A stretch of DNA of 62,659 nt from a virus. Shown here piece after piece: positions 4,253 through 31,048 of this stretch. The notes beneath the pieces were generated by a model. That model did no database searches, was not told the DNA's origin, and worked only from the letters and a program-made list of their open reading frames with translations. Numbering within the stretch: position 1 is the first letter of the stretch; every line of letters begins with the position of its first letter. The stretch is from positions 1 to 62,659 of the IMG/VR virus record IMGVR_UViG_3300028048_000073; one strand, given 5' to 3'. A program made the translations under genes and the position numbers.

Positions 4253-4281
4253 TTGACATTGCGAAAAATTTTTGATATAAT
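4253..4281 (+). promoter_or_regulatory. sigma-70-type promoter with extended -10: TTGACA-17nt-tgaTATAAT
   Basis: Perfect hexamers; 27 of 30 positions are identical to the promoter at 21113. Confidence 0.6.
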
Positions 4282-4307
4282 AGGGATAGGAAAGGAGGGA
4301 ACGAAAA

Positions 4308-5431: not shown

Positions 5432-6691
5432 ATGCCGTTTTGTCAAAAATGTCAAAAGACACTTAAAGATGTGGCTTTTTATACATATAAAGATGGAACA
5501 AAAACAGAATTATGTAAGAAATGTTTAACAATGCACGTAGACCCCTATAAACCTGAAACTTTCCTTTGGATACTTGAAAAAATGGATATTCCGTGGCTTC
5601 CTTGGGAATGGAATCCTCTTGTGGCGAGGGCAGCCGCTAAAGGAAGCCAGTATGTTAGTGGTACCGCCATTATGGGCAAATACCTTGGAAAGATGCGGCT
5701 AGGTCAATGGGGAAAATTAGGTTGGGCGGATACAGAAAAAGAACAGGCGAAAAGAGACGCCTTAAGAGCTGAATACACTATTGTTCATGGCGAAGCACCA
5801 AAAGATAAGGAAACTCTTCATCAGCAATATATTGATGGAGAAATAACAGAAGCTCAATATAAGACTATGCTGCCAGAAGAATTAGTCGTGCCGCCACCAC
5901 CTGAAGCACCCCCAGAGCCAGTAGACCCTTATAAAGAAAACGATTTTCTGGATGAAGTGGAAAGTCCTGCGGCTCAACTATCTCAAGAAGATAAAATTTA
6001 TTTAGCCATGAAGTGGGGCAGAAATTATCATGCTGAACAGTGGATAAAGCTTGACCGTATGTATGAAGAGATGTCTAATTCTTTTGATATATCAGATGCG
6101 GATTCTAAGATAAATTTGCGGCAGCTCTGTAAGACATGGCTGAAAGCTGAAGAAGCTATTGATATGGGTGATATTGATAGTTATCAAAAGCTCAATAGAG
6201 TTGCGGAAAGCCAACGTAAAAGTGGTAATTTTACTGCCGCACAAAATAAAAAAGAAAAAGATGACTTAGTAGATTGTGTTGGAAATCTTGTTGCCTATTG
6301 CGAGCGGGAAGGCGGAAAGATTCCTCGTTTCGATATATCTGCGCCAAGAGATCTCGTTGATAAAGAAATTCAAGACCAAAAAGATTATATTCATGCGCTC
6401 ATATATGAAGATAAGGCATTGGCACAGCAGATAGAAACTTATCTAAAGAAACGTGAACTATTGGATGAAAAAGTGCGGAAGAAGCTGCTCGAGCGCGCGG
6501 GAATCAAAGAAGACGACGAACTTAACGATGATGACTTTATGGATAGATTCAATGAAATTTCTCGTGAAGTTGAGCATGACTTAGCCGTTCAATCTGGTTC
6601 TATTGATAATGAAGACAATGATGAAAAATCAGTAGAGGGAGATGATGAATATGGCTTTGTCGGATTTGACAGCCCTCTACGACAAGTATGA
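5432..6691 (+). CDS. hypothetical protein with N-terminal zinc-ribbon (CQKC...CKKC) and acidic coiled-coil C-terminus; small terminase candidate
   Basis: 419-aa ORF, AGGAGATG RBS, 3-prime end overlaps the terL start. Confidence 0.5.
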   Translation: MPFCQKCQKTLKDVAFYTYKDGTKTELCKKCLTMHVDPYKPETFLWILEKMDIPWLPWEWNPLVARAAAKGSQYVSGTAIMGKYLGKMRLGQWGKLGWADTEKEQAKRDALRAEYTIVHGEAPKDKETLHQQYIDGEITEAQYKTMLPEELVVPPPPEAPPEPVDPYKENDFLDEVESPAAQLSQEDKIYLAMKWGRNYHAEQWIKLDRMYEEMSNSFDISDADSKINLRQLCKTWLKAEEAIDMGDIDSYQKLNRVAESQRKSGNFTAAQNKKEKDDLVDCVGNLVAYCEREGGKIPRFDISAPRDLVDKEIQDQKDYIHALIYEDKALAQQIETYLKKRELLDEKVRKKLLERAGIKEDDELNDDDFMDRFNEISREVEHDLAVQSGSIDNEDNDEKSVEGDDEYGFVGFDSPLRQV

Positions 6692-6987
6692 GTCCAAAAT
6701 AGGAATGTCGGAAGAACGCTTAAAAGAGCAACTTCCAAATTTAAGAAAATTAATTAGTTTTTTTAGAGAATATCCAGATTTATTTGTAGACTTCATGAAA
6801 GGCGAGAAGAGCACTTTTAAGTTCTATTATTATCAAAGAGTATTTATAAGAATGGTGGCGCGGCATCGATACGTTTATGCGACGTATCCGAGGGCCTTCA
6901 GCAAAAGCTTCTTGTCGGTATTAGTGCTAATGTTGAGGGCAGTTCTTTTTCCTGGTTCTCATTTGTTTGTAACTACGGGCGGTAAAT
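6642..6987 (+). CDS. terL: large terminase subunit, exon 1 (T4 gp17-like ATPase N-terminus including Walker-A-like PRAFSKS)
   Basis: FYYYQRVFIRM...YPRAFSKSF...FPGSHLFVTTGGK matches gp17 RDYQRDMLKIM...SRQLGKT...KAVGILAHKGS in order and spacing. Confidence 0.7.
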
Positions 6988-7921
6988 AATATAAAAAAGA
7001 AGGAGGAGCACATAGTGAGTGCAAAAAACGTCCTTAGATATTTTGATAAAATTAATACAGAAGAGAAAGCCTATTGGTTGGGTTTTTTATATGCAGATGG
7101 TTCTATTTCTTCCAAAGAAGATAAAATTGAATTAGGTTTAGCAGAGAAAGATTTACATCATATTGAAAAATTTAAACAAAGTTTACAATTACCAAATAAA
7201 ATATGTTATAGGGCTTCAACAAAATCTTATAGAATTAGCTTTAGAAGTCAATCATGTAAGCAAGATCTCATTAATAAAGGTTGTGTTCCTAAAAAATCTT
7301 TAATTCTAAAATTTCCAACAGAAAAACAAGTTCCTTTTTATCTTTTAAAACATTTTATTAGAGGATATTTTGATGGAGATGGATGGTTCACAAATACGTC
7401 TGATTGTTTTCAAGTTGGCATCATTGGAACACAGGACTTTATTCAAGGGTTTTTAAATGCAGTAGAAAACATTAATAAAACAAATAAAATTTTTAGTGTT
7501 CATAGAGAAAACGGTGCAAAAAGATACATATTTGGAGCTTATAATGATGTCTTAAATTTTTTAAATTGGATTTATAAAGATTCAACAATTTATTTAGATA
7601 GAAAATATGAATCTTATTTAGATTTTATTCAAAATGGAAGTAAATATCATAAATAATAATTTTTATATGCCGCCATATTAAAGTAATTTAATATAAGAAA
7701 ACTGCGGAATTAAGCGGGGAAGCTGAGATGCTAATCCGAACCGAAGGCCAATAAATAAAAGGATTGGTCAGGGGCAACGCATAGGGGGTGACGAAAGAAT
7801 AATCTCTCCACGAGGCCGCAGCTCCTTTGAAAGGATGAAAAGATATGCTAGACTTATACGAAAGCAAGTATAAGATTTTATGGATAAAAAGCCATAAAGA
7901 TAATATAATCGAAAGAACAAG
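6988..7921 (+). mobile_element. putative group I intron (about 934 nt) interrupting terL, carrying a LAGLIDADG homing-endonuclease ORF
   Basis: The two terL halves are in-frame homologues of contiguous gp17 sequence. The intervening sequence has stops, its own RBS, and a 3-prime 260 nt with P/Q/R/S-like core elements (attaagcggggaagc, taatccgaacc, ggtcaggggcaa, aagaataatctctcc). The modelled exon 1 ends in T and the modelled intron ends in G. Confidence 0.6.
7015..7656 (+). CDS. LAGLIDADG-family homing endonuclease (two motifs: LGFLYADGSI and IRGYFDGDGWF)
   Basis: 213-aa ORF inside the terL interruption, GTG start after GAAGGAGG RBS. Confidence 0.8.
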   Translation: MSAKNVLRYFDKINTEEKAYWLGFLYADGSISSKEDKIELGLAEKDLHHIEKFKQSLQLPNKICYRASTKSYRISFRSQSCKQDLINKGCVPKKSLILKFPTEKQVPFYLLKHFIRGYFDGDGWFTNTSDCFQVGIIGTQDFIQGFLNAVENINKTNKIFSVHRENGAKRYIFGAYNDVLNFLNWIYKDSTIYLDRKYESYLDFIQNGSKYHK

Positions 7922-9306
7922 CCTCAAGCATTACACTATCTAAAGTCGAAGAGCTCTGTAAGCTATTACCATTCTTACAGAATGAAATCAATTGGGAGCG
8001 TGGGGAAACAAGAAAAACAAAAGATGATGTATGTTACAAATTTAAAAATGGTTCAATTATAGATATTCTTGCAGCAAAAGAAAGTTCAAGAGGGCAAAGA
8101 AGACACTCTGGATTGATGGAGGAGTGCGTTCTTATAGATCAAACTGCTTTGAATGAAATAATTATCCCAACGACGAATGTGAACAGGAACCTTCCGGACG
8201 GATCAACTGACCCTAAGGAGATTGTGAACAAGAGCCAAGTGTATATCACCACAGCAGGCTGGAAAGCCTCGTTCGCGTACACAAAACTTATTGAACTATT
8301 GATTCAATCAATTATTGAACCAGATGAAGTCATGATTGCGGGAGGTACCTATGAAACGCCTGTACTCGAAGGGTTATTAGATGAAAACTTCGTTAATCAG
8401 TTACAGCTACAAGATACTTACAATGAGGATTCCTTTGACCGAGAGTACAGGTCTCGTTGGAGTGGAGATGTGGCGAACGCATTCTTCTCTGCGGAAAAAT
8501 TTGATAGATATAGAGTGCTGAAACAGGCTGAATACGAACATAGCGGCCGCTCCTCAAAAACAGCTTATTATGTATTTGGCGTGGATGTTGGACGCTTTGA
8601 TTGTACTACTGAGGTACTTGTTTTTAAAGTTACGCCTCAACCGCAGGGTCCAGCAATCAAATCGCTTGTTAATATTTATACCCTAAATGCAGAGCACTTT
8701 GAAGACCAAGCAATTAAATTGAAAAAACTATTCTTCAAATATCATGCCAAATGTATTGCTATTGACGCAAATGGCGTTGGTGCAGGTTTAGTTGACTATC
8801 TCGTAAAAGCTCAAACCGACCCAGATACTAATGAATATTTACCGCCTTTTGGCGTTGAGAATGATGATGATGGAAAATATAAGAATTTTAGAACTCCAGA
8901 TATGGAAGAAGATGCATTGTTCTTAATCAAAGCAAATGCGCCAATGAATACAGAAATGTATGCTTATGCAAAAGTACAAATGATTAATGGTAAGATTAAA
9001 CTATTAATTGATGAGTCTCAAGCAAAAGCAACACTTATGTCTACAAAGGCAGGACAAGCGATGAGTATCGCGCAACGCAATGATTATTTAAGACCTTATG
9101 TTTTAACAACTGTTTTAAGAGAACAATTGCTTAATCTCTCGCAAGAAAATGAAGGATTAAATATTATTCTTAAACAAGTATCTAAGACAATCAAAAAAGA
9201 TAAATTCTCTGCTTTTATATATGGACTTTACTATATTAAAAAGTATGAAGATTCGAAACATAAACGAAAGAAAGTTAGACTTTCTGATTATATGTTCTAT
9301 ACATAA
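7922..9306 (+). CDS. terL: large terminase subunit, exon 2 (Walker B / coupling motif / nuclease domain)
   Basis: SSSITLSKVEELCKLLPFLQ...NGSIIDILAAKESSRGQRRHSGLMEECVL aligns with gp17 [21 protein letters not shown]...[30 protein letters not shown]. The frame is open from 7909. Confidence 0.75.
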
Positions 9307-9388: not shown

Positions 9389-9751
9389 ATGTGAGGGCTT
9401 CAAGAGCAGAAATAAAAATAGAAGATATATTAAAATTTTCAGATTTAAATTTTCAAGAAGAATATAGTTTTCCAGATTTAGTTTCAAATAATGGGCGTCC
9501 TCTTCGATAGCTTTGATTTTGCAGTATTTGATGATGAAGGAAATCTTGATTTCTTAATTGAATATAATGGAATTCAGCATTACGAACCCAAAAGCAAATT
9601 TGGTGGAATTTCTGGCTTGCGCAAACAACAATACAATGATAATATGAAAAGAAGATATTGTGAAAAACACAATATTACTCTTGTAGAAATTCCATATACT
9701 GAGGAAAACCTCATTAGTTATGATTATATAATGAAAGCCGCAGGCTACTAA
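9389..9751 (+). pseudogene. free-standing PD-(D/E)xK-like (DUF559 / Vsr / EDxHD-like) endonuclease gene split by a +1 frameshift at 9508-9512
   Basis: ORF A (9389..9511, ...NNGRPLR-stop) and ORF B (9491..9751, FDFAVFDDEGNLDFLIEYNGIQHY...) together align with the C-terminal domain of the 59937..60968 protein (LFFDIGIYNKDKLLYLIEYDGIQHF...IPLIRIPY). Confidence 0.55.
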
Positions 9752-17100: not shown

Positions 17101-17697
17101 ATGGTAGATTTGACAGTAAAATGTAAATCATCTTTTCTTTCTTGTGAAAAAGATACAGAAGAAATTCTTTATAAATTATTTATTAAAAGTAGACAATATA
17201 GTGAGAATCTCAAAAGATTACTTTTAATTCCTAATAAAGATTGCTTGACCAACAAAGAAAACGAGGAATATAAAAAGTTATTAGAACAAGCTGATTTAAA
17301 CTATCTTAGAAAAAATGGATATTTAAAACTTGAACCAAAGATTAGGATGCCAGAGCATGAAGATAAAAAATCATATATTATTATGTCTTTTGATAACTTC
17401 ACGCAAAGCGGCAATCCAGAATTTAGAGATTGTATTGTCACTTTTGATGTTATATGCCATATAGATACTTGGGATATAGGTAATTATCAATTGAGACCAT
17501 TGAAGATATGCGGATATATTGATGGACTTTTAAATAATACTCGTTTATCAGGTATTGGTACTTTTCAATTTATGGGATGTAGTGAGCTAATTCTTAATCA
17601 AGATTTAGCTGGATATACTTTGATGTATAGCGCTGTGCACGGATCTGATGATTTAATAGAACGAGATGGCGCAATCCCAGAACGGAAATATAAATGA
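17101..17697 (+). CDS. hypothetical protein (AT-rich)
   Basis: 198-aa ORF, GGAGTTGAAGGA RBS, lower GC than neighbouring structural genes. Confidence 0.45.
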   Translation: MVDLTVKCKSSFLSCEKDTEEILYKLFIKSRQYSENLKRLLLIPNKDCLTNKENEEYKKLLEQADLNYLRKNGYLKLEPKIRMPEHEDKKSYIIMSFDNFTQSGNPEFRDCIVTFDVICHIDTWDIGNYQLRPLKICGYIDGLLNNTRLSGIGTFQFMGCSELILNQDLAGYTLMYSAVHGSDDLIERDGAIPERKYK

Positions 17698-18455
17698 TAG
17701 ATCCTTTTATTCTTAACTCCAAAATAGACATTCCTTTTTATGGCGCTGAGGTTTCAGTTCATCAACCTTCCTTAAAAGAAATAGCATATATTGGAGGTCA
17801 AGATGTTTTGTTTCCTGGCTGTGAATTATTAAGAATTTCTAAAGATATCTTAAATGAGAATGACAAAGTTGATTTAGAAAACATCACAAACTTTGATATA
17901 TTAATGCAAGTAATTTCTATTTCTTCGCCAGAATTAAAAAAGCCAATAGAAAGTGCTAAATTAGTCTTGGAGATCTTGTTCCCAGAATATGAAATAGAAT
18001 GGAAACCACCTTTTGAGATTGTTTTGACTAAAGAGTTTTATAAAACCTCAATTAATCGTAATAATTATGATGAGCTAAGAGCAATGCTTCCTGAAATATT
18101 TTGTTTAGTTCGACAAGGACAGCAAGATGAGTTTGATCCAAATGATGCAATGGCAAGACGAATTGCGGAGCAGATTAAACGATATAGAAAAAAAATGGCT
18201 CAACAAAGGGGCGGCGAAACAGGCTCAATTTTTGATAGATATATTTCTATTCTATCTGTTGGTTTAAATAAGGATAAAAATAAGCTATTAGAATATTCGG
18301 TATATCAATTGTTTGATGAATTTGAGAGATATCAAGCTAAAGTAGCTTATGATATATATGTCCAAGCAAAAATGGCTGGGGCAAAAGATATTGAAGATGT
18401 AGACAATTGGATGAGGGATTTACACTCACGGTCTACAGAAGATGAATTTATTTAA
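17694..18455 (+). CDS. hypothetical protein (AT-rich)
   Basis: 253-aa ORF overlapping the previous stop (ATGA). Confidence 0.45.
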   Translation: MIDPFILNSKIDIPFYGAEVSVHQPSLKEIAYIGGQDVLFPGCELLRISKDILNENDKVDLENITNFDILMQVISISSPELKKPIESAKLVLEILFPEYEIEWKPPFEIVLTKEFYKTSINRNNYDELRAMLPEIFCLVRQGQQDEFDPNDAMARRIAEQIKRYRKKMAQQRGGETGSIFDRYISILSVGLNKDKNKLLEYSVYQLFDEFERYQAKVAYDIYVQAKMAGAKDIEDVDNWMRDLHSRSTEDEFI

Positions 18456-18469
18456 GGAGGAAAACCGAT

Positions 18470-19489
18470 ATGAAATTTGGTGTTAGAGAATGTACTAATA
18501 TTGTATTTAGAGCAAAATCTAAAGTTACTATTGGTAACACTACTTTCCAAGCTGGTCAGCCGGTTCTTTATATTGATACGGCAAAGACTTCAACACTTGA
18601 AGGTGCAGCAACCTCTGTATATGCAACTGGTGGTCGTGGTAACCCAAGATTGATTACTTGGGAGGGAGAAAGAACTTTGACTTTTACAGTTGAAGATGCG
18701 CTTTTATCCCCACTTGGTTTCTCAATTCTTTCTGGTGCAGGCCTATTGAAGAATAGCGGAACGGAGCCCGTACACGTGCATAAAGTTGTATATCAGAATA
18801 TCGCAACTGATGGTGTAGTTGACGTTTCTGACGCACTTGATGAAGGGGAGACTTTCTGTGCAGAGGCCCCAATCTTTGTATTACCTACAGAATTGGACGG
18901 TTCAATTGCGCAGGCAGATCCATTTAAAATTAGCACAGCGCCAACTGCTAATTCAATTAAACTAGCTGCAACAGATGCGCCTGGTTATACAAAATATGTT
19001 GAAGCTGACCATGTTGGTACAACTGTTATGGTAGATTTTTATGCTATTGCAGCCGGCGAAGAGGTCGTCCATGAATTACAAATTGATGCAGAAAATTTTG
19101 CTGGCTACTATTATGTTGAAGCAGACACGCTATTTAGACGTCAGGATACGGGAAAAGATATGCCTGCTATTTTAACACTTCCAAATGTTAAAATTCAGTC
19201 TAATTTTACCTTTACAATGGCAAGTTCTGGAGATCCATCAACATTTACATTTACTATGGATGCAATGCCTGGATATACATATTTTAACAAGAAAAAGAAA
19301 GTTCTTTGTGTTGTTCAAGTTATTGAGAGTACACAAGGTGCATCAACACGCGAAAGTGTAATGCCTCATAATGCAACTAGTCATACATCTTTGCATGATG
19401 AAAATGATGTGACAGGAAGAGACGGTACGACGGCTTATAAAGATGGTACATTTATGGATAGCTGGGTAAATGAAACAGCGAATGGTTGA
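18470..19489 (+). CDS. major tail protein (putative)
   Basis: 339-aa ORF, AAGGAGG RBS; beta-rich Thr/Gly composition; sits upstream of the chaperone and tape-measure genes. Confidence 0.45.
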   Translation: MKFGVRECTNIVFRAKSKVTIGNTTFQAGQPVLYIDTAKTSTLEGAATSVYATGGRGNPRLITWEGERTLTFTVEDALLSPLGFSILSGAGLLKNSGTEPVHVHKVVYQNIATDGVVDVSDALDEGETFCAEAPIFVLPTELDGSIAQADPFKISTAPTANSIKLAATDAPGYTKYVEADHVGTTVMVDFYAIAAGEEVVHELQIDAENFAGYYYVEADTLFRRQDTGKDMPAILTLPNVKIQSNFTFTMASSGDPSTFTFTMDAMPGYTYFNKKKKVLCVVQVIESTQGASTRESVMPHNATSHTSLHDENDVTGRDGTTAYKDGTFMDSWVNETANG

Positions 19490-19625
19490 AATAATCAACC
19501 AATTCCTGTAACGCCTGATCCTTAGACTGGTAATATGTAAATAATAATATTGATGCGGGGGTGGTGGCCAATAGGCTGCTACTTCCGTATTTTAATATAC
19601 TATATTATATGGGGGTGAGAAGCAT

Positions 19626-21111
19626 GGGAAGATACACATATAATTCAGCTACTCCATATTATATTCATAATTCTATTATGTCAAAAAGAAAAGGAACTTC
19701 TTTTTTAAATGATGTTGAAGAGAATCCTACCTATAAAACAATATTAGAACAACACTGTAAGGATATAAAATTAGAAAAAAGAATTTCTAATCAGTATTTA
19801 TCATTATATCAAAATTTTTTAAAAGATAACAATGTAAGAATAGATTTTACACAATTAGATATGGAAAAAATAAATCAACAAATTTCAACAGAAATGGAAA
19901 AATTACTTAATGGAGCATCAAAAAAAGCACAACAGCAATATATAGATCTTTTTGATGAAAAGACCCTTTATCAAAGAATTATGGAGAAAGCAGAAGAATA
20001 TATGGATACAGGAAATGGGCAAGCTTTATATGAAATTAATAATAAAATTATGGAACCTTTATTTGATAATATTGCAAAAAGTTTTGGTAGTAATTCATAT
20101 GGAGATTTTATTGAAATATTAAAAAATACATCATCTTTTCAAGATAGTGGTTTTTCTGATAAGTTTTTAAAACAAATACAGAAGACATCAGAACAATATG
20201 ATATAGCTATTGAAAAATTAAAAGCATTAAAAAGCAATAATGGAATTGATTCTAAATCCATTCAAAAATCATTAAGGAGAATTGTATCTGGATTGTCTAC
20301 ATCCCTTTCTCAAAACCTATTAAGCACAGTTATTGGAGAATATAGCGGGTTTTTAGCAACGGATAGTATTAAAAAAGAAATAGAAACCACTTTATTAGGA
20401 TATAAACATGAAGGTACAACACAAGCAGTATCTCTTTCAGGTGAAAAAGTTACAAAGAAACAAGATAATGCCATTTCAACTATTATTGATATTGATGGGA
20501 AAAAAATAAATATTATTATAGGTTTATCTAATAAATGGTATTTTAGTCAAAAAGAAACTAAAGCAGAAATTGGAAAAAATACTATTCAAAATGATTTATC
20601 AATTTCCAGTGGTAGGATGGGATCTGTAATAAGATTGCTTGAGCAAGTAGAAGATATAAAAATGAAATATTTGATAGCGAATGTTGTTCATTTTAAAACA
20701 ACAAATGCAAAAAATAAGAAAGAAGGCTTAATAGAATTGGAAAATCGATATCAAATACCGACTTTGGTTTATCGAAATATTATTTTATTAGGTTTTTTAT
20801 CTGGTTTTGTTTCTGCTGGTAAACGAGATTTTGTAAATTATTTTTTAATAAATGGACAATTTAAATCTGTCTTAGAGATAATTCAAGATTTTTTAGAAAC
20901 AAAAACTAAAATTGAAGATTATTTCTCTGTATTTTTTGGCTCAAAGCTATATAAGACTCCAGTTTCAGTAATCTCTGTTAATGAAAATTTTTGGGGAGAA
21001 AATCCATTAAAAGGAAGTAAAGAGAGATTGGTTAGATTGGATAGAGTTCCTATTTTATTAGAAATGCATATAGGAAAAATAATAAGAGCGCAAAATAATT
21101 TAGAAGGATAA
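19626..21111 (+). CDS. hypothetical 495-aa protein of unknown function (AT-rich, accessory/moron candidate)
   Basis: Track ORF 19561 trimmed to the ATG after a GGGGGTGAG RBS. GC is about 26% versus about 36% in flanking tail genes. A consensus promoter follows immediately downstream. Confidence 0.5.
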
Positions 21112-21112
21112 T

Positions 21113-21141
21113 TTGACATTTCAAAAAATTTTTGTTATAAT
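21113..21141 (+). promoter_or_regulatory. sigma-70-type promoter with extended -10: TTGACA-17nt-tgtTATAAT
   Basis: Perfect hexamers; nearly identical to the 4253 promoter; sits inside the tail module. Confidence 0.55.
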
Positions 21142-21185
21142 ATAAAAAAGGAATAAAATCAAAAGTGGAAAAGGAGTTAGATAAT

Positions 21186-21743
21186 ATGGAAACAGAAATT
21201 ACTTCTCTATATCCTCATTTTTCAGATATAGATACAAAATATAAAAAAGAATTTAAGACTTTTATTTGGCGCGATAAAGAAATTAAAGTATCTCAATATC
21301 TTCCTATTGATGAGAAAATTGCTTTAATTGATATTGCACTTCAAAAGTCAATGCACAATGGTATAGTACATCCGCTTCAGCTTGAAAAATATTACCAGCT
21401 TGGTCTTGTTTATATGTATTCTGATATTGTATTCTCAGAAGAGGATCGTACAGATGAAGCTAAGATTTATGATGAACTTTATGTAACGGGATTATTAAAT
21501 GAGGTTATAAAATATATCCCAACGAAAGAATTGCAGACTTGCGCAGATAAACTTAATCAAACTAAAGCTGCTATTGAAAAGCATAAAGTAAGTGCAGTTG
21601 GTATTATTGAAACATTGATTGATACTATTGAAAATGAAGTTCCGCATATCATGGATATGGTAAATAATCTTACACCAGAAAATGCACAGCAGCTATTGCA
21701 GATGATTTCATCAAAAATACCTGTAGAGGAAGGTCAAAATTAA
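21186..21743 (+). CDS. tail assembly chaperone (putative)
   Basis: Acidic protein of about 186 aa immediately upstream of the tape-measure gene; GGAAAAGGAG RBS. Confidence 0.4.
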   Translation: METEITSLYPHFSDIDTKYKKEFKTFIWRDKEIKVSQYLPIDEKIALIDIALQKSMHNGIVHPLQLEKYYQLGLVYMYSDIVFSEEDRTDEAKIYDELYVTGLLNEVIKYIPTKELQTCADKLNQTKAAIEKHKVSAVGIIETLIDTIENEVPHIMDMVNNLTPENAQQLLQMISSKIPVEEGQN

Positions 21744-21770
21744 ATAAGCAGAACAAGTTAATTCGTCTAA

Positions 21771-21806
21771 GTCTATTATCATTATATAATGATAATAGAC
21801 TTTTTT
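21771..21806 (+). terminator. rho-independent terminator/attenuator: 14-bp stem gtctattatcatta-tata-taatgataatagac plus T6
   Basis: perfect hairpin followed by TTTTTTATTTT, between the chaperone and tape-measure genes. Confidence 0.55.
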
Positions 21807-21840: not shown

Positions 21841-24800
21841 ATGGCTAACAGTGGTCGTTTTGAATATACGATTGGTTTTAAAACTGATGATAAAGGTTTA
21901 AGAGACGCTCGTAAAGCATTACAAGAAATTCAAAATTTGACAATTAATTCACCCGGTATGTCAGATAAAAGTGGATTTTTGGAAAATGCTAAAAAAAGTG
22001 CTGCAGAATTAGAATTAGCTTTAACAAAAGCATATAACGTAAAAATGGGCACTACAAGCGTAGCTAAATTAAATACAGAATTAAATAATTTAAAAACACC
22101 TTTGAATAAAATATATGAAGATATGGTTGCAATAGGACCGAAAGGTGAGGCAGCTTTTAATAAGATTGCTGCGCAAGCAATGAAAACGAATCTTCAAATT
22201 AAGCAAGGTAATATAATTTTAAATAAATTTGGAAAAACTTTATGGAGAAATGTTGAATGGTTAATTTCTGGTAATTTAATTAATACAGTTACTGGAGTTT
22301 TTACAAAAGCATACGGATTTACTAAAAATTTAGATAGCTCATTGAATGATATTCGTATTGTAACTGGAAAAAGCGCAGATGAAATGGCGCGTTTTGGTAA
22401 AGAAGCACAAGAAACTGCCGCAAAATTAGGCAAAGGGACTACAGATATCACCAATGCTTCTTTAATTTTCTATCAGCAAGGACTTGACAGAGAAGAGGTT
22501 GATGCGCGCACAGAAGTTACTGCAAAAATGGCGAATGTAACAAAACAATCTGCTGATGTTGTTGCGGATCAAATGACAGCTATTTGGAATGGTTTTAGAG
22601 CAGGTAGTGATGAATTGGAGCACTATGCGGATGTAATGACTGCTATTGCTGCAAGTACAGCGTCCAGCTCACAAGAATTGGCTGGATCAATCTCTAAGGT
22701 GGCATCTATTGCCAATACAACTGGTGTTGACATGGAGCAACTATCCGCTATGATATCAACTGTCATTTCTGTAACTAGAGACAGCCCAGAAACAGTTGGT
22801 ACAGCATTTAAAACTATTTTTGCCCGTATCAATGATTTAGTTGAAGATGGCACAGATGAGTTTGGTGTTTCTCTTGGTAGAATATCTTCTCATTTGGCTA
22901 ATATGGGCATTGAAATTCTTAATGAAGATGGAACATTAAGAAACTTAGGAAATACATTAACAGAAACGGGAGAAAAATGGAAATCTTATAGTAGAGAACA
23001 ACAAATCGCCATTGCTGAACAAATGGGTGGTAAACGTCAATGGAACCAAGTGCTTGCCCTGTTCGATAACTGGGATAAATATAAAAACGCTCTTGATGTA
23101 GCAAGAGATTCAACGGGAGCACTACAAAAACAACAAGATATTTATATGGATTCCACAGAAGCACATTTACAAGCGGTAAAGACTGCTTGGGAAGGCGTCT
23201 ATGGAGAAATGATGACTGCTGACAATATTAATACTGTTGCGGATTTCTTTACGGATTTATTAGAAAAAGTTCAAAGTTTTATTCAAGCCGTTGGAGGAAT
23301 GAAGCCTTTATTAACTAGCGTTGCAGGAATTTTAATGACTTCTTTTTCTTCTCAAATTGGTCAAAGTATTGGCAATATAGCTTTGAATTTTCAGAGAATG
23401 TCATATAATGCAAGAGAACTTTCTGCACAAAATCAATTAATTGCGCAATTTGGTAAGTTGGAAAGTCCTTTAATGAAAGAGTTGGCAGATAATCATCAAA
23501 AAATCTTACAATATCAGTCAAGTATGACGGAGCAACAAAGACAACAATATGAAAGTTTATTGGATATTAGAGTTGAAGCAGAAAATGAATATAAAGCTAT
23601 AAAAGAACAAGACGACGCTTTAAAAGGTCTCTTAACGAAATATGAACAAATTGGAGAAATACAAAAGCAAAACAATTCTTTATCAGAAACAACAGACGCT
23701 ATCCAGCAACGTGCGGGCGCCCTTGAAACAATGCGTGAGAATGAAGGGTTTGAAACAAAAAGTGGGCGTTTAGTTTCTTTAGATTGGACAGATAATGATC
23801 ATAAACAGACAATAGATAGTTTGAAAATTGTTAATGCCATAGAACAAGAAATAGTTAAAAGACAAGAACAAGCAATTAAATTAAAAGAACAAATGGTAGA
23901 ACAAACAGGAAAACAAAAGGAAGCTACTCGAAAACAAGCTAAAGAAGAAGAAACTATTGTAAAATATTTAAGAGAAGCTGCTGATATAGCTCGAGAAAAT
24001 GCTCATAGAAGAGCAACGGAAAAAGGAAATCCAAGCCTGCCAAGCAAGGCTGCAAAGACCATTGAAGAAGTACAACAAAAAATTACAAATAAATATCAGG
24101 GAAATCATGATGATGTTGTAGATTTAGTTAAAAATTTAAATGATGTGTTAGGTAAAACAAGTAAACCTGCTGAATCTGCTAAACAAAAAATTGATTTAAT
24201 TAAAGCAAGTTTAGAAAAACTTGGCAAACAAGGGGCTTTAACGGAGAAAGATGTTCAAAACTTAAAAGATAAGTATGATGCATTTGGACAAACAATATCT
24301 AAGGTAACATCTAAAGAAACTTTAATAGAAGGATTTGGAAAATTAAAACAAGAAGTTTTAGCTACGGGAGCAGTTTCTGAAGAAGAATTTACAAAAATGA
24401 TTCAAATGCTTCAAGATGGCGTTCCACAAGCGGCAGATACTGCAAAAGCACATCTTGAAGCTGCAAAAAAAGCAACTAAAGAATTTTTTGAACAATTGGA
24501 TTTTCAAAATAAAATAAAGAACATTACTACAGCAATCGGCGCAGTTGGTCAATTAGCGGGGGCAATTCAATCACTTAAAAATTTAGGTTCTATTTGGGAT
24601 AATAAAGATTTAACAACTGGAGAGAAACTATTACAAACTGTTCAAAATTTAGGTTTTGTAATTCCTATGCTAACTACTTCAGTAATGAATTTAACTAAAT
24701 CTTTATTTGCAAATGCCGGAGCTTTAACAGTAGAAATGCTAGCTGAAAAAGGAGTTGTGCTACAAAAAGGTGCTCATTTAACTGTTACACAATTATTAAC

Positions 24801-27800
24801 CATAGCACAAGTTGCATTAAATGCCGCTTTAAAAGCTAATCCAATCGGTCTCGTTATAACTGCAATTGCCGCACTAGTTTTGGCTATGAAAGGACTTTTG
24901 TCAATTCTTAATAAGGCAACTAAAATTACGGGCGGATGGAGGGCAGCTACTGTTGCCCTAGGCACAGGTATTGGGGCTCTATTTTTAGGTCCTATTGGGG
25001 CTGCTATTGGGTTGACTGCAGGATTAATAGCTAATTTCTGGCAATTAAAAGATGCTGAAGAAGCCGAAAGAAAAGCTATGATTGAATCATCAAAAGCTAA
25101 AATTGAAGCTAATAAAGAACTTCTGGAAACAGCAAAAGCTCAGCAAGAAGCTATACAGTCTTTTAAAGATGCTTATGATGCTTATGAAAAAGATAGGAAT
25201 AAATTAAGCGATTTAACCACAGCAGTTGAGGCATATAGACAAACACTGTCTAGTTCTGAACAAAAACAACTCGACCACTTAAAACATATTGCAGATATTA
25301 CTGGAAATTATGATCTTTTAAGAGATGCTATTCTTGGTGTTGAAGCGGCGGTGCAAGGAACAGAAAATAAAATTTCAGAAGAAAATAAATCTAATTATGA
25401 AAAACTTGTTGCTGCTGAAATAGAAGAAGGTAGTGGGGCAGAAAATTTTAAAGAAGTAAAAGGTAAAGATAGTATTTCTGATTTTACTGGAAAATCAGAT
25501 TCTTCTTCAATTACAGTAAAATATACTTATAATGGCTTAGGAAACAATTCAGGAGAAAAACGAGAATTTGGTACAGAAGAAGAAGCAACGGAATGGTATA
25601 GGAGCTTGAGTACGGATGAACAGGCACAATGGAGTGCTGGTAGCCCTGTTTCCGTAACTGGTAAAGGTTTTGTTGTATCTGGTTCTAGTTCACAAAATTT
25701 TTCCAATATAGGAAAAGCATATAATACTCATTTTAATCAACTTGGTCAGGCTATGGCTCAACAATTGGTTCAAAGTGGGTTAATAACAGAAAAAGATCAA
25801 AAAGAAGTTGCTAATTTTTTAACTTCGGAATTTAAAAAAGGCAATTTTAGTATGGATACTTTGCAACAGGCAATTCAATCCAAATGGGGCATCGATCCAG
25901 AAAAAATGAAAAAAGGATTTGCTAATGTTGTTGCAGAAACAATGCAAGATTGGGATGATATTCTTTTAAATAGTGAAAATTTGGATGTCAATAGCTCTTT
26001 TTATCAAATTGCTCGCGGTGCGATAAATTTTTATACAACTGAAAATACACAAGGCTTAGCTGACACCAATCAATTTTTAGATAAGAATAAAATAGAAAAA
26101 GCAGTATCAGAAACAACTAAAAAATACGAAAATGATTTTAAAAAAGCTGTAAAAATGTCTAAAGAGCAAATTCAATTAAAAACAGAAGAAATATATAAAG
26201 ATTTGCTTTCACAGGGATTAGATTCTGAAGATGCTAGAGATCAAGCTGAACAAATTGTCCAAGGGTTTTTTAGTGATATTGAAGGTGGTATGACTGAGGC
26301 CGCAAAGAATGGCATTTTAAGTTTTAATAATGGCGAAATTGTAAAAACATTAGTCAATGGAGTGAATTTAAAATCATTAAAAACAAATTTTGAAGAAGAA
26401 TTAAAGAGGCATCCAATAAAAGTTGATGGAAAAGATTTTTACATTGATGTCGAAAACTTATCTTGGGAAGGTATCCAACAAGATATTAATAACGGTTCAT
26501 TAAAAAAAGAAGATATTTTTAATGCAGAAGGTCAATTAAATGTTGATACAAAATCTTTACAAATTTTAGCATCTTATTCTCAAGAATATCAAAATTTAGG
26601 AAACAATGTTGCAACTACAACAACTAATTTTGAGCAATTAAATGGTACTATTGATAGTTTGAATGAAAAGATTGAAAAGAAAAATATTAAAAATCTTGAT
26701 AAGGATTCTGATTGGAAAGCATTACAAGAGTCTGAAAGTGATTTAAGAATTTTATTTAAAGATAATGAAGAAATGCTTGAAAAAATGGATATTCTTTTTG
26801 ATCCATCTAAATATGGCACAGATGAGTGGTATGAAGCTTTTCATCGAGTAGCTGATGGAATTAGGTCATCTGGAACAATAGAAGCTTTTAATGAAATGAG
26901 TAAGGTTGAAAATGATTTTCTTAATGAGCATAGAACAATCCAAGAAGAAATAGGCGGAAAGACAGATTTTCAAGTTAAAATGGAAGTTGATGGTGATGAA
27001 TATGAAGATTATATGGAAAAAATCACCGATGCTGATTATAAAGTCAATGTTCAAGTTCAAGTAGAAAATTCTAGAGAATTAAAAGATTTAAAAAATGAAC
27101 TTAATTCCACTATTGGGTTAGCTGGAAAAATTGGCGAGGGATTTATTGTTTCTCGAGATGATTTGTTCGAATTAGCAGAGGCATATCCTGCACTTTTAAA
27201 GAATGCCCAGCATATGACAGACGGGACTATTAAATTAAATGAGGCTTCTGTAAAAGATTTTATAGATGCTAAGAAAAAAGAATTTCAAGCAGAAGTTGAA
27301 GCAAAAAGGCAGAAAATATTAGCACAAATTGAAATTTTAAAGCATAAAAAAGAAACTTATGATAAAATGGCTGATATTGGCGCGAGAATGGCTTCAGGGG
27401 CAATTGATACGGAAGAAGACCTTGTTGAGGTTACTGGACAATTAGATGCACATAATGAGGATTTAAAAATTGCTAATCATTATCTTACAAATCAAGAAGA
27501 TAGTAAATTAATGGAAGCTAATGTAGATGATTTTAATAAATCAGGTAAAAAAATTGTAGACAGTAATAGATCGTTTTGGCAACAAGTTGTTGATGACAGG
27601 GCTGCAATTTTAAGTGGACAAGCAATAACGGATTCATATAATCCAGATGATTTTAAATGGTCATCGGATAGCTGGGATGATTTAATAGGCTTTATTAATA
27701 GAAAAGACCTTGGAAATGGACACTATCTTGCAGATTATTGGGGAGCTATTGATGAAATAAAAAACCGAGGTCAAGATATATATGATAAATTTCATAAGTT

Positions 27801-30800
27801 AAGTGAAGAAACTCAAGGGCTTATAGACGATGAGTATGCTTCATTAGATAGCTTAAATTTATATGAAAAAGCTGGATTAGATGCTTTTAATAATATTGGA
27901 AAAGTAACTGATGCGACCAAGGATAACACAAAAGCAGAAAAAGATGCAGCAGAAGCACAACAAGAATTGCTCGATTTGTTAAATGAAGAAATAGATGCAT
28001 ATCATGATGTTACGCAACAAATTGAGCGCCATACGACAGCATTAAATCGTCTTCAAAAAGCTCAAGAAAAAGCCACCGGAAAAACATTAATTAAAAATCT
28101 TCAAGATCAGATGAAGGCATATCAAGATCTAAATAATGACTATGCAGACAAGCAGTTCTTACAATATGAAGAGGCTGCTGCTTATAGAGTCCAACTTGAA
28201 GAGCAGGGTGTTGCTTTTGATGAAAACGGTGTCATTAGCAATTATAGTGATATTCTTAATCAAAAACAAAAAGAAATTAATGCTGATCTAGCATGGTATA
28301 ATTCTCTAAGTGCAGAGGATCAAGAGGCACAAAAAGATTGGATTGAATCTCGACAAGCAGAGTATGATAGCTTAGTAGATCTTATTGGCAATTATGACCA
28401 GCTATGGAATCAAGATATTCCTGATTTGGCAGATGAAATAGCTGAGAATATTGATAAACAAGTTGAGCTTGAATTAGAGATTAAAAAACAAATTGTTCAA
28501 ATTGAGGTAGATAAGGGTTCCTTAAAACGAATGGAGATGGAACTTAATAAAACACTCGATAATGTACAAGAGAAAGATTTAGAGAGAAATCTTGCCTATA
28601 ATATCCAATCTTATTTTACCTATAGTGATGAAGAAAAGGCAAAATTAAAAAGATATTTAGAGGCAAAGCAGAAAAAAGATGAAGCAGATACAAGTGGAGA
28701 AGACCTATCAGCAGCAGATTTGGAGAACTATAGGGAAGCATTAGAAGATTATAATTCAATAATGCAAGAAAAGGCTAAGCAAGCGAATGAGATAATTTCA
28801 AGTGCTTTTGATGGCTTAAATGAAAAAATTGAAAGACAAAAAACTCAATTTGAAACTATGTCTAAATTATTTGAACATGATATGAACCTTATAAAATTAA
28901 GATATGGTGATCAAGCTTTTGAACAATTGAAGACTCTTTACGCGGCAAGAGAAGAAAACGCAAAAGCACAGCTTAGTAATGCGAATTTGGCTTTAGAAGT
29001 CGCTCAAAAAGAACTAGCAGCTGCGCAAGCAAAAGGAGATTTAGATTTAGTGCAGGCGGCGCAGGATAAAGTAACATCAGCATTGGAAGCACAGAGACAA
29101 GCCGTCATTGATGGTATTAATGCAATTCAAGATACTGCAATGAATACTGTCGATGCTATCTTTGCGCATTTAGATGAACAAGTTGCTGGAGTTTCTTTTG
29201 AAAAAATGAAAAAACAATGGGATGACATGGAAAAGGATTCTGCTGATTATTATGATGCTATTAATGGAGCGTATGAGATAGAGAAATTACGTACTAATAT
29301 GAAAAAAGCAATTAATGAATCTGGAAGTGCGGCTACACAAAAGGCATTAAATAATTTAATGAATGAAGAAATTACAAAATTACAACAAAAAGATAAATTA
29401 TCAAAATATGATATTGAGAGAGCTAATGCTTTATTTGATATAGAACAAAAACGTGCTGCTTTTAGAGAAGCGCAAAACAATAAATCTAAAATGCGTTTAC
29501 GTAGAGATGCATCTGGTAACTATTCTTATCAGTTTGTTTCTGATGAAGATAAAGTAACTTCTGCAATACAAGATTTGGCAGATGCTCAAAATCAATTATA
29601 TAATATAGACAAGGAAGCATATAAAAATAATCTTGAAAAAATGCAAGAATACTACTTGGAATACCAAGAAGAAATGAAGGCGGCGGCGAACGCTAGCGCA
29701 GAAGAACGACAAGCAATCGAAGACAGATATATGGAACGTGTTGCTGAACTTCAAGAAGAAAATAGAGATGCAAGTAGGAACCTAATTCAAGATGTTGTAA
29801 ATGATAGCGAAATATTAACTGGAAAGAGTATTGAAAATATAGAAGATATGACTCAAGCCGAAGTAGATGCGCTTATGGGGAGTGCTATTCCTGCATGGAA
29901 GTCTTATCTTGGTGTTATGAGTCGATCAAAAGACTTATTGGCCGATATGAAACAAGCTGGACTGGATGCCTCTCAGGTTTTTGACACTTCAAAAGCAAAA
30001 ATTGATATTGAAATGGCTCTTAATGGACTATCATGGGATAGCTTAATAGAAGGCTTTGATCCAGCTGTAGAAAACATAAAAACAATGACATCCTCAACAA
30101 ATGAGATTGCGCAAGAGGTAAAGAATATTTCTGCAGGGGTTAGTCAATTTATAGAAGCTATTAAGTCTAACAATTTCACAGAGGGGCTAGAAAAATTTGT
30201 GATGGCTTTAGAAAATGGAACATTAATTACGCCTGCAATTAATATTTTACCTCAAAGAAATGCCTATATTTCTTCTGATAATATGGATACTATTGTTGAT
30301 TCTGCCGCTAGTCCAATGGATAGAATAATTACATCATATACACAACTTAAAGGGGAAGAGGCAAGAGCTCGTCGAGATCAACTTATTGATAATGGAGTGA
30401 TTTTTGATGCTGATGGAATTATTAATAACTATGCTGAAATTATAAAGCAAAAACAATTGGGGCTTAGCGCCGATTCAGCATGGAGCAGTTCCTTAAGTGG
30501 AGAAGATCAAGAGATACAGAAAGATTGGATTGAATCTCGTCAAGCAGAATATGATAATCTCATAGATTTAATTAGCGGTTATGACCAGTTATGGAATCGA
30601 GATATTCCTGCTTTAACAAATGAAATAACAAAAATCGCAGAAGAAAAAACGAGTAATGATTTACAAGAACGAGTTAGCGATTTAATAGATAATTCCATGT
30701 TTGTTTCTGAAACAGTTCAATTTTTAGCAGATAGGTTATCTAAGGTATATTCTCAGCAGTCTGAAATACTAAGCGAGACGATGGATTATTTACATACTTT

Positions 30801-30963
30801 GAGTACTGCTAAAGAAAAAGAAAGAGAACTTCAAGAATATCAACCAACTGTTGTTAATATTAACGCTGATTTCCCCGCAGTAACATCTCAACATGAAATT
30901 GAACAAGCTCTTGATTCTCTTGTTGCAAGAGCTACGCAGAGAGCTTATCGTACGGTTAGGTAA
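21841..30963 (+). CDS. tail tape measure protein (3040 aa)
   Basis: Giant alpha-helical, coiled-coil-rich ORF with a hydrophobic Gly/Ala-rich central TM-like block (aa about 1000-1070); position after the chaperone; internal duplication. Confidence 0.75.
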   Translation: MANSGRFEYTIGFKTDDKGLRDARKALQEIQNLTINSPGMSDKSGFLENAKKSAAELELALTKAYNVKMGTTSVAKLNTELNNLKTPLNKIYEDMVAIGPKGEAAFNKIAAQAMKTNLQIKQGNIILNKFGKTLWRNVEWLISGNLINTVTGVFTKAYGFTKNLDSSLNDIRIVTGKSADEMARFGKEAQETAAKLGKGTTDITNASLIFYQQGLDREEVDARTEVTAKMANVTKQSADVVADQMTAIWNGFRAGSDELEHYADVMTAIAASTASSSQELAGSISKVASIANTTGVDMEQLSAMISTVISVTRDSPETVGTAFKTIFARINDLVEDGTDEFGVSLGRISSHLANMGIEILNEDGTLRNLGNTLTETGEKWKSYSREQQIAIAEQMGGKRQWNQVLALFDNWDKYKNALDVARDSTGALQKQQDIYMDSTEAHLQAVKTAWEGVYGEMMTADNINTVADFFTDLLEKVQSFIQAVGGMKPLLTSVAGILMTSFSSQIGQSIGNIALNFQRMSYNARELSAQNQLIAQFGKLESPLMKELADNHQKILQYQSSMTEQQRQQYESLLDIRVEAENEYKAIKEQDDALKGLLTKYEQIGEIQKQNNSLSETTDAIQQRAGALETMRENEGFETKSGRLVSLDWTDNDHKQTIDSLKIVNAIEQEIVKRQEQAIKLKEQMVEQTGKQKEATRKQAKEEETIVKYLREAADIARENAHRRATEKGNPSLPSKAAKTIEEVQQKITNKYQGNHDDVVDLVKNLNDVLGKTSKPAESAKQKIDLIKASLEKLGKQGALTEKDVQNLKDKYDAFGQTISKVTSKETLIEGFGKLKQEVLATGAVSEEEFTKMIQMLQDGVPQAADTAKAHLEAAKKATKEFFEQLDFQNKIKNITTAIGAVGQLAGAIQSLKNLGSIWDNKDLTTGEKLLQTVQNLGFVIPMLTTSVMNLTKSLFANAGALTVEMLAEKGVVLQKGAHLTVTQLLTIAQVALNAALKANPIGLVITAIAALVLAMKGLLSILNKATKITGGWRAATVALGTGIGALFLGPIGAAIGLTAGLIANFWQLKDAEEAERKAMIESSKAKIEANKELLETAKAQQEAIQSFKDAYDAYEKDRNKLSDLTTAVEAYRQTLSSSEQKQLDHLKHIADITGNYDLLRDAILGVEAAVQGTENKISEENKSNYEKLVAAEIEEGSGAENFKEVKGKDSISDFTGKSDSSSITVKYTYNGLGNNSGEKREFGTEEEATEWYRSLSTDEQAQWSAGSPVSVTGKGFVVSGSSSQNFSNIGKAYNTHFNQLGQAMAQQLVQSGLITEKDQKEVANFLTSEFKKGNFSMDTLQQAIQSKWGIDPEKMKKGFANVVAETMQDWDDILLNSENLDVNSSFYQIARGAINFYTTENTQGLADTNQFLDKNKIEKAVSETTKKYENDFKKAVKMSKEQIQLKTEEIYKDLLSQGLDSEDARDQAEQIVQGFFSDIEGGMTEAAKNGILSFNNGEIVKTLVNGVNLKSLKTNFEEELKRHPIKVDGKDFYIDVENLSWEGIQQDINNGSLKKEDIFNAEGQLNVDTKSLQILASYSQEYQNLGNNVATTTTNFEQLNGTIDSLNEKIEKKNIKNLDKDSDWKALQESESDLRILFKDNEEMLEKMDILFDPSKYGTDEWYEAFHRVADGIRSSGTIEAFNEMSKVENDFLNEHRTIQEEIGGKTDFQVKMEVDGDEYEDYMEKITDADYKVNVQVQVENSRELKDLKNELNSTIGLAGKIGEGFIVSRDDLFELAEAYPALLKNAQHMTDGTIKLNEASVKDFIDAKKKEFQAEVEAKRQKILAQIEILKHKKETYDKMADIGARMASGAIDTEEDLVEVTGQLDAHNEDLKIANHYLTNQEDSKLMEANVDDFNKSGKKIVDSNRSFWQQVVDDRAAILSGQAITDSYNPDDFKWSSDSWDDLIGFINRKDLGNGHYLADYWGAIDEIKNRGQDIYDKFHKLSEETQGLIDDEYASLDSLNLYEKAGLDAFNNIGKVTDATKDNTKAEKDAAEAQQELLDLLNEEIDAYHDVTQQIERHTTALNRLQKAQEKATGKTLIKNLQDQMKAYQDLNNDYADKQFLQYEEAAAYRVQLEEQGVAFDENGVISNYSDILNQKQKEINADLAWYNSLSAEDQEAQKDWIESRQAEYDSLVDLIGNYDQLWNQDIPDLADEIAENIDKQVELELEIKKQIVQIEVDKGSLKRMEMELNKTLDNVQEKDLERNLAYNIQSYFTYSDEEKAKLKRYLEAKQKKDEADTSGEDLSAADLENYREALEDYNSIMQEKAKQANEIISSAFDGLNEKIERQKTQFETMSKLFEHDMNLIKLRYGDQAFEQLKTLYAAREENAKAQLSNANLALEVAQKELAAAQAKGDLDLVQAAQDKVTSALEAQRQAVIDGINAIQDTAMNTVDAIFAHLDEQVAGVSFEKMKKQWDDMEKDSADYYDAINGAYEIEKLRTNMKKAINESGSAATQKALNNLMNEEITKLQQKDKLSKYDIERANALFDIEQKRAAFREAQNNKSKMRLRRDASGNYSYQFVSDEDKVTSAIQDLADAQNQLYNIDKEAYKNNLEKMQEYYLEYQEEMKAAANASAEERQAIEDRYMERVAELQEENRDASRNLIQDVVNDSEILTGKSIENIEDMTQAEVDALMGSAIPAWKSYLGVMSRSKDLLADMKQAGLDASQVFDTSKAKIDIEMALNGLSWDSLIEGFDPAVENIKTMTSSTNEIAQEVKNISAGVSQFIEAIKSNNFTEGLEKFVMALENGTLITPAINILPQRNAYISSDNMDTIVDSAASPMDRIITSYTQLKGEEARARRDQLIDNGVIFDADGIINNYAEIIKQKQLGLSADSAWSSSLSGEDQEIQKDWIESRQAEYDNLIDLISGYDQLWNRDIPALTNEITKIAEEKTSNDLQERVSDLIDNSMFVSETVQFLADRLSKVYSQQSEILSETMDYLHTLSTAKEKERELQEYQPTVVNINADFPAVTSQHEIEQALDSLVARATQRAYRTVR

Positions 30964-30969
30964 GGTTAG

Positions 30970-30988
30970 GGCTGCGGTTACCGCAGCC
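30970..30988 (+). other. GC-rich stem-loop (ggctgcgg-tta-ccgcagcc) after the tape-measure gene
   Basis: 8-bp perfect GC stem in an AT-rich context. Confidence 0.3.
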
Positions 30989-31048
30989 TTAACTTGACTT
31001 TTATAAGATTTTTTGATACAATAAAAAGAGAAGAAGGAGTGATAAAAC

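Follow-up and report, generated by a model that had tools for sequence, protein, structure and literature searches.

The stretch of DNA analysed here, referred to below as the window, comprises 62,659 nucleotides (nt) of the IMG/VR virus record IMGVR_UViG_3300028048_000073 (positions 1 to 62,659) and carries phage late genes in a rightward order: portal (9764), capsid (13645), five small head/neck genes, genes 17101 and 17694, tail tube (18470), a gene for a protein of 495 amino acids (aa), a 185-aa gene (21186) and a gene for a 3040-aa tape measure protein (21841). Our main subject is the 495-aa gene, hereafter the slot gene, which occupies a place between the tail tube gene and a chaperone-like gene. 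The slot is never empty in over 70 phages of the gut and rumen, and the gene that it holds is insulated by a terminator and a promoter and evolves and recombines far faster than its neighbours. The features of the locus are as follows.

18470..19489, + strand: major tail (tube) protein of the YomU_Tube type (phrog_2729, E 2e-49; PF27173)
19552..19597, + strand: T1, a 17-bp GC-rich hairpin (19552-19590) with a short U-tract, intrinsic-terminator-like, 3' of the tube gene
19624..21111, + strand: slot gene, encoding a 495-aa hypervariable protein of the 'long' superfamily (open reading frame 19561/19624-21111)
21113..21141, + strand: P2, a perfect extended sigma-A-type promoter, TTGACA (21113-21118), N17, TGtTATAAT (21133-21141)
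21186..21743, + strand: chaperone-like gene, 185 aa (phrog_30570, E 5.6e-10; equivalent at the same position in phage VRE9_2)
21769..21811, + strand: T2, a 15-bp AT-rich perfect hairpin (21769-21802) with a T-run, between the chaperone-like and tape measure genes
21841..30963, + strand: tape measure protein, 3040 aa (its homologue in relative L006 carries PF10145)

An earlier reading of the window (the original prediction) had already placed a 495-aa gene between the tail tube and chaperone-like genes, a position that is confirmed, and had given it the coordinates 19626..21111. The likelier start is the ATG at 19624, which has the ribosome-binding site (RBS) GGGGGTGA upstream, 19626 being the G of this ATG and the frame of 19626 containing 57 stops. 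The tube protein served to fetch 80 IMG/VR loci of relatives. The order tube, slot gene (339-560 aa), chaperone-like gene (157-216 aa) and tape measure is found in 45 standard-code loci, i.e. every locus of that set with a readable tape measure gene, and the same order, with a slot gene of 334-586 aa, is restored in 25 further loci that look shattered in the standard code but become readable once TAG or TGA counts as a sense codon. Together with L090, the slot is filled in 71/71 readable relatives (334-586 aa) and empty in none. L090 (CACYVR010000001.1, 138.8 kb) is the closest relative found, with ~78% DNA identity to the head genes of the window; it is filed under a rumen 'uncultured Methanobrevibacter' metagenome-assembled genome but almost certainly comes from a phage whose genome was binned wrongly. 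A single structural-module clade is thus read in three genetic codes, with ~45 loci using the standard code, ~17 using TAG as sense and ~8 using TGA as sense. In the outgroup phages VRE9_2, WRP3 and Thrax3, the slot is empty and the chaperone directly follows the tube gene. The idea that the 495-aa gene is an insertion finds partial support in these outgroups, but not within the clade, where the slot is never vacant.

The signals on either side of the slot are conserved as well. The T1 hairpin has a folding energy of -26.5 kcal/mol and the intergenic fold a z-score of -2.97, no shuffled sequence folding as well, and equivalents (a hairpin with a T-run) are present in most of the distinct relatives examined and in all three outgroups. 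The slot ATG lies ~30 nt 3' of T1, and a near-consensus sigma-A promoter (at most one mismatch per hexamer) was found within 160 nt 5' of the slot gene in 0/45 loci scanned. P2 begins 2 nt past the slot stop codon and is one of four perfect TTGACA-N16-18-TATAAT sites in the window, where 0.13 would be expected by chance, which confirms the consensus promoter reported earlier at 21113. It is kept in 64/71 loci (43/45 plus 21/26) whichever slot allele is present, and in Thrax3, which has no slot gene, T1 is followed by TTGAAA-N17-TATAAT and then by the chaperone gene. The presence of T1 and a P2-like promoter in outgroups argues that the slot gene sits inside an ancestral T1/P2 junction, and the retention of P2 that this promoter is ancestral punctuation. 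P2 is hence a mark that punctuates the operon rather than one that repairs it, and the proposal that it restarts transcription after an insertion is refuted by its presence across the clade and by a P2-like promoter in a phage without a slot gene. An equivalent of T2 occurs in most relatives in which this gap is readable, and the chaperone-like gene with P2 and T2 is the sole promoter-gene-terminator unit of the region. Although the phages have diverged in other respects, the T2 hairpins of the window (21769-21802) and of L002-L084 have in common a stem core resembling CTTAYTAT(C)AT, suggesting that T2 may be more than a plain terminator, e.g. a protein-binding site. A further junction lies 3' of the tape measure gene, where a GC-rich hairpin (30969-30988) is followed by TTGACT-N17-TGaTACAAT (30994-31022), and the late region seems, from such predicted signals, to be repeatedly punctuated by terminator/promoter junctions. 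The spacer of P2 recurs almost unchanged in a perfect sigma-A-type promoter at 4253-4281, directly 5' of the sigma factor gene.

Within these boundaries, the slot proteins are hyperdivergent and fall into at least two superfamilies. A HMMER search of 1.84 billion representatives yielded one homologue of the slot protein, P0002 (30% identity, E 2.7e-20), encoded on another phage contig at the corresponding slot. By BLAST and phmmer, the 81 distinct slot proteins group into many clusters, which profile comparison joins into superfamilies. The 'long' superfamily contains the cluster of the window, the L007 cluster (27 members), the L064 cluster (12 members), L072 and L081/82 at probabilities of 79-97% and, more weakly, L084 (65-83%), while the 'short' superfamily unites the clusters of L002 and L029 with L008, L010 and L022 at 83-95% and, more weakly, with L063 (48%). 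No profile link was obtained between the two.

Pairs of phages with near-identical flanks can carry slot alleles that look unrelated. When L072 and L074 are compared, DNA identity is 96% as far as T1 extends, is undetectable across the slot and is 93% from the -35 box of P2 on, and non-synonymous divergence (pN) is 0.54 for the slot genes and at most 0.027 for flanking genes. An approximately 10-fold excess of divergence, in the slot only, also separates L019 from L020 or L024. The window and L090 present a similar picture, their proteins being 90% (capsid), 91% (YomW-like, see below) and 73% (chaperone-like) identical while the slot proteins do not match; the L090 allele falls into another cluster (E 1e-37), and DNA similarity between the two phages ends at 19593 to resume at 21111. 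Slot alleles are thus swapped as cassettes, by recombination exactly at T1 and P2. Slot genes diverge far more than the tube and tape measure genes do. The ratio of non-synonymous to synonymous substitutions (dN/dS) in close, alignable pairs is 0.08-0.19 for the slot and 0.01-0.09 for its neighbours, and the slot gene is therefore under purifying selection, weaker than that on its neighbours.

The recoded relatives offer a clue to expression, since recoded stops are characteristic of late genes according to the phAss-1 paper (PMC10607447). Their density per 1000 codons is 0.1 in the tube gene, 8.4 in the chaperone-like gene, 11.0 in the YomW-like gene, 16.2 in the slot gene, 16.4 in the tape measure gene and 19.1 in the YomV-like gene. 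The slot gene, with a density close to that of the tape measure gene, therefore behaves as a low-abundance late gene and not as an early or prophage-expressed one.

Base composition had been a central element of the original prediction, which saw GC dips in genes 17101, 17694 and the 495-aa gene. Total GC is indeed lower in all three (29.5, 31.8 and 26.3%, with dips at 17101-18455 and 19624-21111) than in the capsid, neck and tube genes, which lie overall at 36-40% (major capsid 40.3%, tail tube 39.4%; the tape measure gene is at 33.4%). However, at third codon positions (GC3) only the 495-aa gene deviates: at 14.1% it is the sole outlier and the lowest of the module, the others being 19.6% (17101), 22.0% (17694), 22.4% (tube) and 18.7% (tape measure). 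The lower total GC of 17101 and 17694 is mainly due to neighbouring capsid and tube proteins being rich in Gly and Ala. The other window genes of more than 200 aa with a GC3 of ~12-14% are recognisable endonuclease genes (7015-7656, 12%; 59937-60968, 14%). In 40 relatives, slot GC is always below that of the tube gene, is the same as in the upstream 3 kb and follows each genome, from 24-29% in AT-rich phages to 38-39% in the L065 group. Since slot GC follows each resident genome, the low GC3 of the slot gene does not by itself point to recent import.

An idea of what the slot protein might do comes from its conserved residues. E239, D281, K304 and N353 are invariant in the family alignment and K279 nearly so, and the family motifs are G-E, Q-x-K-x-D, G-x-S-x-K-x-Y and F-x-x-I-N-G-x-x-x-S-I-x-D-I-I, with an N-terminal Y-I-H, which suggests a conserved active or binding site. 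Low-confidence models depict a helical first half, a beta-hairpin carrying D281 and S-x-K, and then helices. Searches for known relatives were unrewarding: the 495-aa protein had no tblastn match in 50,697 phage records, word-indexed searching of 5.8 billion proteins recovered nothing beyond the query except when limited to C-terminal domains, which gave 15 relatives, the full-length slot profile found only a weak SMC match (E 0.18) among PDB sequences and the C-terminal profile none, and Pfam, NCBIfam and PADLOC scans of 19 family members showed no consistent match. Remote homology searches, which had been recommended for this protein, thus revealed no structural signature, in accord with the original prediction, and the structure models proved unusable. 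Three candidate relationships were discarded. The 495-aa protein does not resemble a G/GT-type tail assembly chaperone, given its size and the small chaperone candidate downstream, and hhalign showed no relation of the slot family to the phAss-1 pectate-lyase protein or to the tyrosine-recombinase-like genes that lie directly 5' of the tape measure gene in WRP3 (949-group; L004 10807-11799) and Thrax3 (Tsamsa-like; L087 8903-9880), where they are a conserved if unusual component of the tail module.

We propose, with a probability of roughly 55%, that the slot is an insulated, universally retained, late hypervariable cassette that encodes a low-copy tail or virion protein with a host-side partner; our confidence in any particular biochemical role is much lower. 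In this model, T1 would end most upstream transcripts, the slot protein would be made late and at a low level by read-through of T1, P2 would re-initiate transcription for an abundant chaperone-like protein, and T2 would attenuate it again ahead of the tape measure gene. The product, predicted to be helical in its N-terminal half and alpha/beta in its C-terminal half, where E, K-x-D, S-x-K and N are invariant, would be a low-copy late protein working with the tail or virion. Its partner would not be found among the adjoining tail proteins and would most likely be host-side, which would explain both the extreme divergence of the alleles and their swapping as cassettes in T1/P2 sequences. Synteny, the filling of the slot throughout the clade, the conservation of T1, P2 and T2, the cassette boundaries, purifying selection and the recoded-stop density are all observed, and read-through expression, association with the virion and a host-directed function are what we infer. 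If the slot protein is indeed a host-directed virion protein, it would provide a new handle on host range or counter-defence in poorly studied large siphoviruses of the Firmicutes type.

Several points weigh against this model. The slot may hold functionally different proteins, because the 'long' and 'short' families could not be linked. The tube and chaperone-like genes are unchanged when slot alleles swap, which argues against a tight structural interface with their products. The slot protein matches nothing in Pfam, PHROG function categories, PDB sequences, PADLOC or NCBIfam, and both AlphaFold2 models are unusable, with a pLDDT of 33.7 from the single sequence and 37.8 from a 16-sequence alignment. 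Read-through of T1 and activity of P2 are predicted from sequence, and the phage has a sigma factor of its own whose promoters could not be defined. Finally, both virion membership and an action on the host are predictions for this protein.

How the slot gene relates to morons deserves attention, since the original prediction took the 495-aa gene for horizontally acquired cargo of this type, acting outside virion biology in superinfection exclusion, anti-defence or abortive infection. A lambdoid moron, in the sense of Juhala and Hendrix, is a promoter-gene-terminator unit inserted between late genes. The slot gene is likewise an extra gene among tail genes with lower GC, a site that is empty in outgroup phages and evidence of horizontal exchange, and its hypervariability, its GC3, the lowest of the module, and the lack of a structural signature in its product would all suit such cargo. 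However, its arrangement is the opposite of that of a moron, with a terminator upstream, a promoter downstream and no near-consensus promoter of its own; close relatives do not differ in its presence, the slot being filled in the whole clade (71/71) and empty only in distant outgroups; its GC follows each resident genome; and recoded stops are as dense in it as in late structural genes. Furthermore, PADLOC finds no match, and a window with DNA polymerase, NrdD, helicase and sigma factor genes but no integrase makes a prophage-expressed moron unlikely. What stands of the prediction is the horizontal exchange and the missing structural signature, and moron cargo as such seems improbable to us, low GC and a nearby strong promoter, both ancestral and clade-wide here, being insufficient to call a moron. 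The slot protein may nevertheless act in host interaction or counter-defence, because the outgroup slot is empty, alleles are exchanged horizontally and no structural signature is found.

The fixed place of the slot between tube and tape measure genes in all relatives could also be explained by a non-virion factor in tail assembly, for instance an additional chaperone or a scaffold on which the tape measure protein (3040 aa) depends, and the long helical N-terminal half (in a low-confidence model) and a possible homologue, phrog_29801, directly 5' of the VRE9_2 tape measure gene would be consistent with this. It is, however, at odds with allele swaps that leave the flanking tube and chaperone-like genes unchanged and with a divergence much greater than in the tube and tape measure genes, and the invariant polar residues would suit an active or binding site better than the surface of a chaperone, so that we regard an assembly factor as rather unlikely. 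If these residues are catalytic, two other scenarios can be envisaged. E239, D281 and S302-x-K304 are conserved and lie by a predicted beta-hairpin (pLDDT 38), in an E...K-x-D...S-x-K pattern that we take to resemble the PD...SxK sites of the Cfr10I/NgoMIV type, although the second acidic residue is replaced by S, N or T and no PD-(D/E)xK profile match was found in Pfam, NCBIfam, PADLOC or PDB sequences. The slot proteins might then be a new family of virion-delivered enzymes, possibly PD-(D/E)xK-like, directed against a host target or defence and diversified in an arms race with shuffling at T1 and P2. We hold this to be a tentative idea with the odds clearly against it; were it true, the slot would be a dedicated diversity cassette in the tail module of a clade of large gut and rumen siphoviruses spanning three genetic codes. 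Alternatively, the slot gene could be a domesticated or active selfish gene akin to homing endonucleases, with a nuclease fold of the PD-(D/E)xK type, in which an acidic/lysine catalytic motif sits on an alpha-beta-beta-beta-alpha-beta core. This would fit the motif resemblance, the sharp cassette boundaries and a GC3 of 14% like that of the window endonuclease genes. The free-standing homing endonuclease genes of large phages, exemplified in the window by phrog_4645 and HNH genes, are likewise AT-rich, placed between conserved genes and sharply bounded. Yet they are sporadic and recognised by HMMs (a true endonuclease insertion is present in L090 and not in the window), whereas the slot gene is universal and unrecognised, with no nuclease HMM or PDB match, no usable fold model and the second acidic residue of the motif never present. 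A selfish nuclease is accordingly a most improbable explanation.

A low-copy protein encoded just after the tube gene, as the cassette model would have it, has precedents in other phages. SPP1 gp17.1* and lactococcal TpeX are tail-tube extensions encoded just 3' of the tube gene. The slot gene has in common with these extensions and with the phAss-1 protein described below a variable sequence and a position 3' of the tube gene and 5' of the chaperone gene, and all these products are expected to be sub-stoichiometric to the tube protein. It differs in that it lies behind a terminator and is translated as a cistron of its own, from its own RBS, with no frameshift or fusion, and its product is predicted to be rich in helices rather than to adopt an Ig, carbohydrate-binding or beta-helix fold. 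A pectate-lyase protein is encoded next to the tube homologue, on its 3' side, in phAss-1 and is fused to it in two related genomes (PMC10607447), and the position 3' of the tube gene can therefore encode tube-associated, host-directed modules, although the slot protein has no similarity to the pectate-lyase protein.

A further parallel may exist in phrog_29801, a 452-aa hypothetical protein of the VRE9/EF1 group of large Enterococcus siphoviruses (XAG97223.1 in VRE9_2), which is of similar size and is also encoded between tube and tape measure genes. Comparison with the 'long' slot profile by hhalign gives a remote match (54%, E 1.3e-4) with Q-x-K-x-D, G-x-S-x-K and F-x-x-N-(G/D)-x-x-x-S in register, while BLASTP detects no similarity between the slot protein and phrog_29801. 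The gene differs in position as well, lying 3' of the chaperone genes and directly 5' of the tape measure gene rather than between T1 and P2. Homology with the slot family is thus suggestive, and cultured Enterococcus phages may carry a distant slot homologue.

The two genes upstream of the tube gene, which had been grouped with the 495-aa gene as inserted accessory cargo devoid of structural signatures, are of a different nature.

17101..17697, + strand: YomW-like neck/tail-completion gene, 198 aa (phrog_6123 'virion structural protein', E 4.7e-16; PF27256 YomW)
17694..18455, + strand: YomV-like gene, 253 aa (phrog_4051, E 3.7e-28; PF27211 YomV_2nd)

These matches show that the supposed absence of structural signatures was mistaken. 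Synteny, the check that had been called for, places orthologues of both genes at the same place in 44/44 metagenomic relatives checked, in L090, in Enterococcus phage VRE9_2 (same PHROG order for 17101, 17694 and tube), and in Lactococcus phage WRP3 and Bacillus phage Thrax3, where positional equivalents are collinear. The product of 17101 is 44-68% identical in the 44 metagenomic relatives, a conservation equal to that of the tube protein, and that of 17694 is 28-49% identical; with L090 the figures are 91 and 79%. The YomV-like product matches WRP3_161 (E 7e-16), of equal length and position. Among the positional equivalents of 17101, WRP3_162 is labelled 'structural protein' and that of Thrax3 'tail completion protein'; the WRP3_162 label is that of the depositors, and no experimental basis for it was found in the accessible literature, where we also found nothing usable on the SPbeta Yom structural proteins or on the proteomics of VRE9/EF1 phages. 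By synteny and profile matches, 17101 and 17694 are to be considered core neck/tail genes, and their description as insertions is refuted.

Pfam detects YomW, YomV_2nd and YomU_Tube (PF27256, PF27211 and PF27173) consecutively on the contig and identifies the capsid gene as YonB, and these genes represent the SPbeta structural set in SPbeta order; the structural genes of the phage as a whole are of the SPbeta/949/EF1 type. The tube protein (18470) matches 69 phage records, annotated major tail proteins among them. The product of the chaperone-like gene (21186) shows 22-48% identity where it is detected (30/45 loci), and by its position this phrog_30570 gene is a candidate tail chaperone.

The parent contig of the window measures 132.5 kb and has a GC content of 33.7%. 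The scanned genes of the window include a phage sigma factor, terminase, DNA polymerase, NrdD, a Dda-like helicase and several endonuclease genes, with no integrase among them. The phage is a large (~132 kb) siphovirus of the gut or rumen, and the locus treated above is the neck-to-tail section of its late module. Because replication and nucleotide-metabolism genes are present and an integrase was not found, it is probably virulent.

Endonuclease genes are found at several places. The large terminase gene is apparently split, an open reading frame at 5432-6691 (phrog_3314) being followed by an endonuclease gene at 7015-7656 (phrog_4645, GC3 12%), a 456-nt GC-rich non-coding stretch (7657-8112) and another reading frame at 8113-9306 with terminase matches. 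This region (5432-9306) looks like an intron or endonuclease insertion, and an Rfam search of it found no group I or group II intron. An 86-aa HNH/homing-endonuclease fragment lies at 9491-9751, between the terminase and portal genes, and a full HNH endonuclease of 343 aa at 59937-60968 (- strand, GC3 14%), between the DNA polymerase and Dda-like helicase genes; these two HNH genes are the genuinely mobile AT-rich genes of the window. In L090, an extra phrog_4645 endonuclease gene (L090:7339-8181), absent from the window, lies between the YomV-like and tube genes. The last ~40 residues of the phage sigma factor (phrog_5767, encoded in the 4253-5384 region of the window) match the endonuclease VII and Lar-like families.

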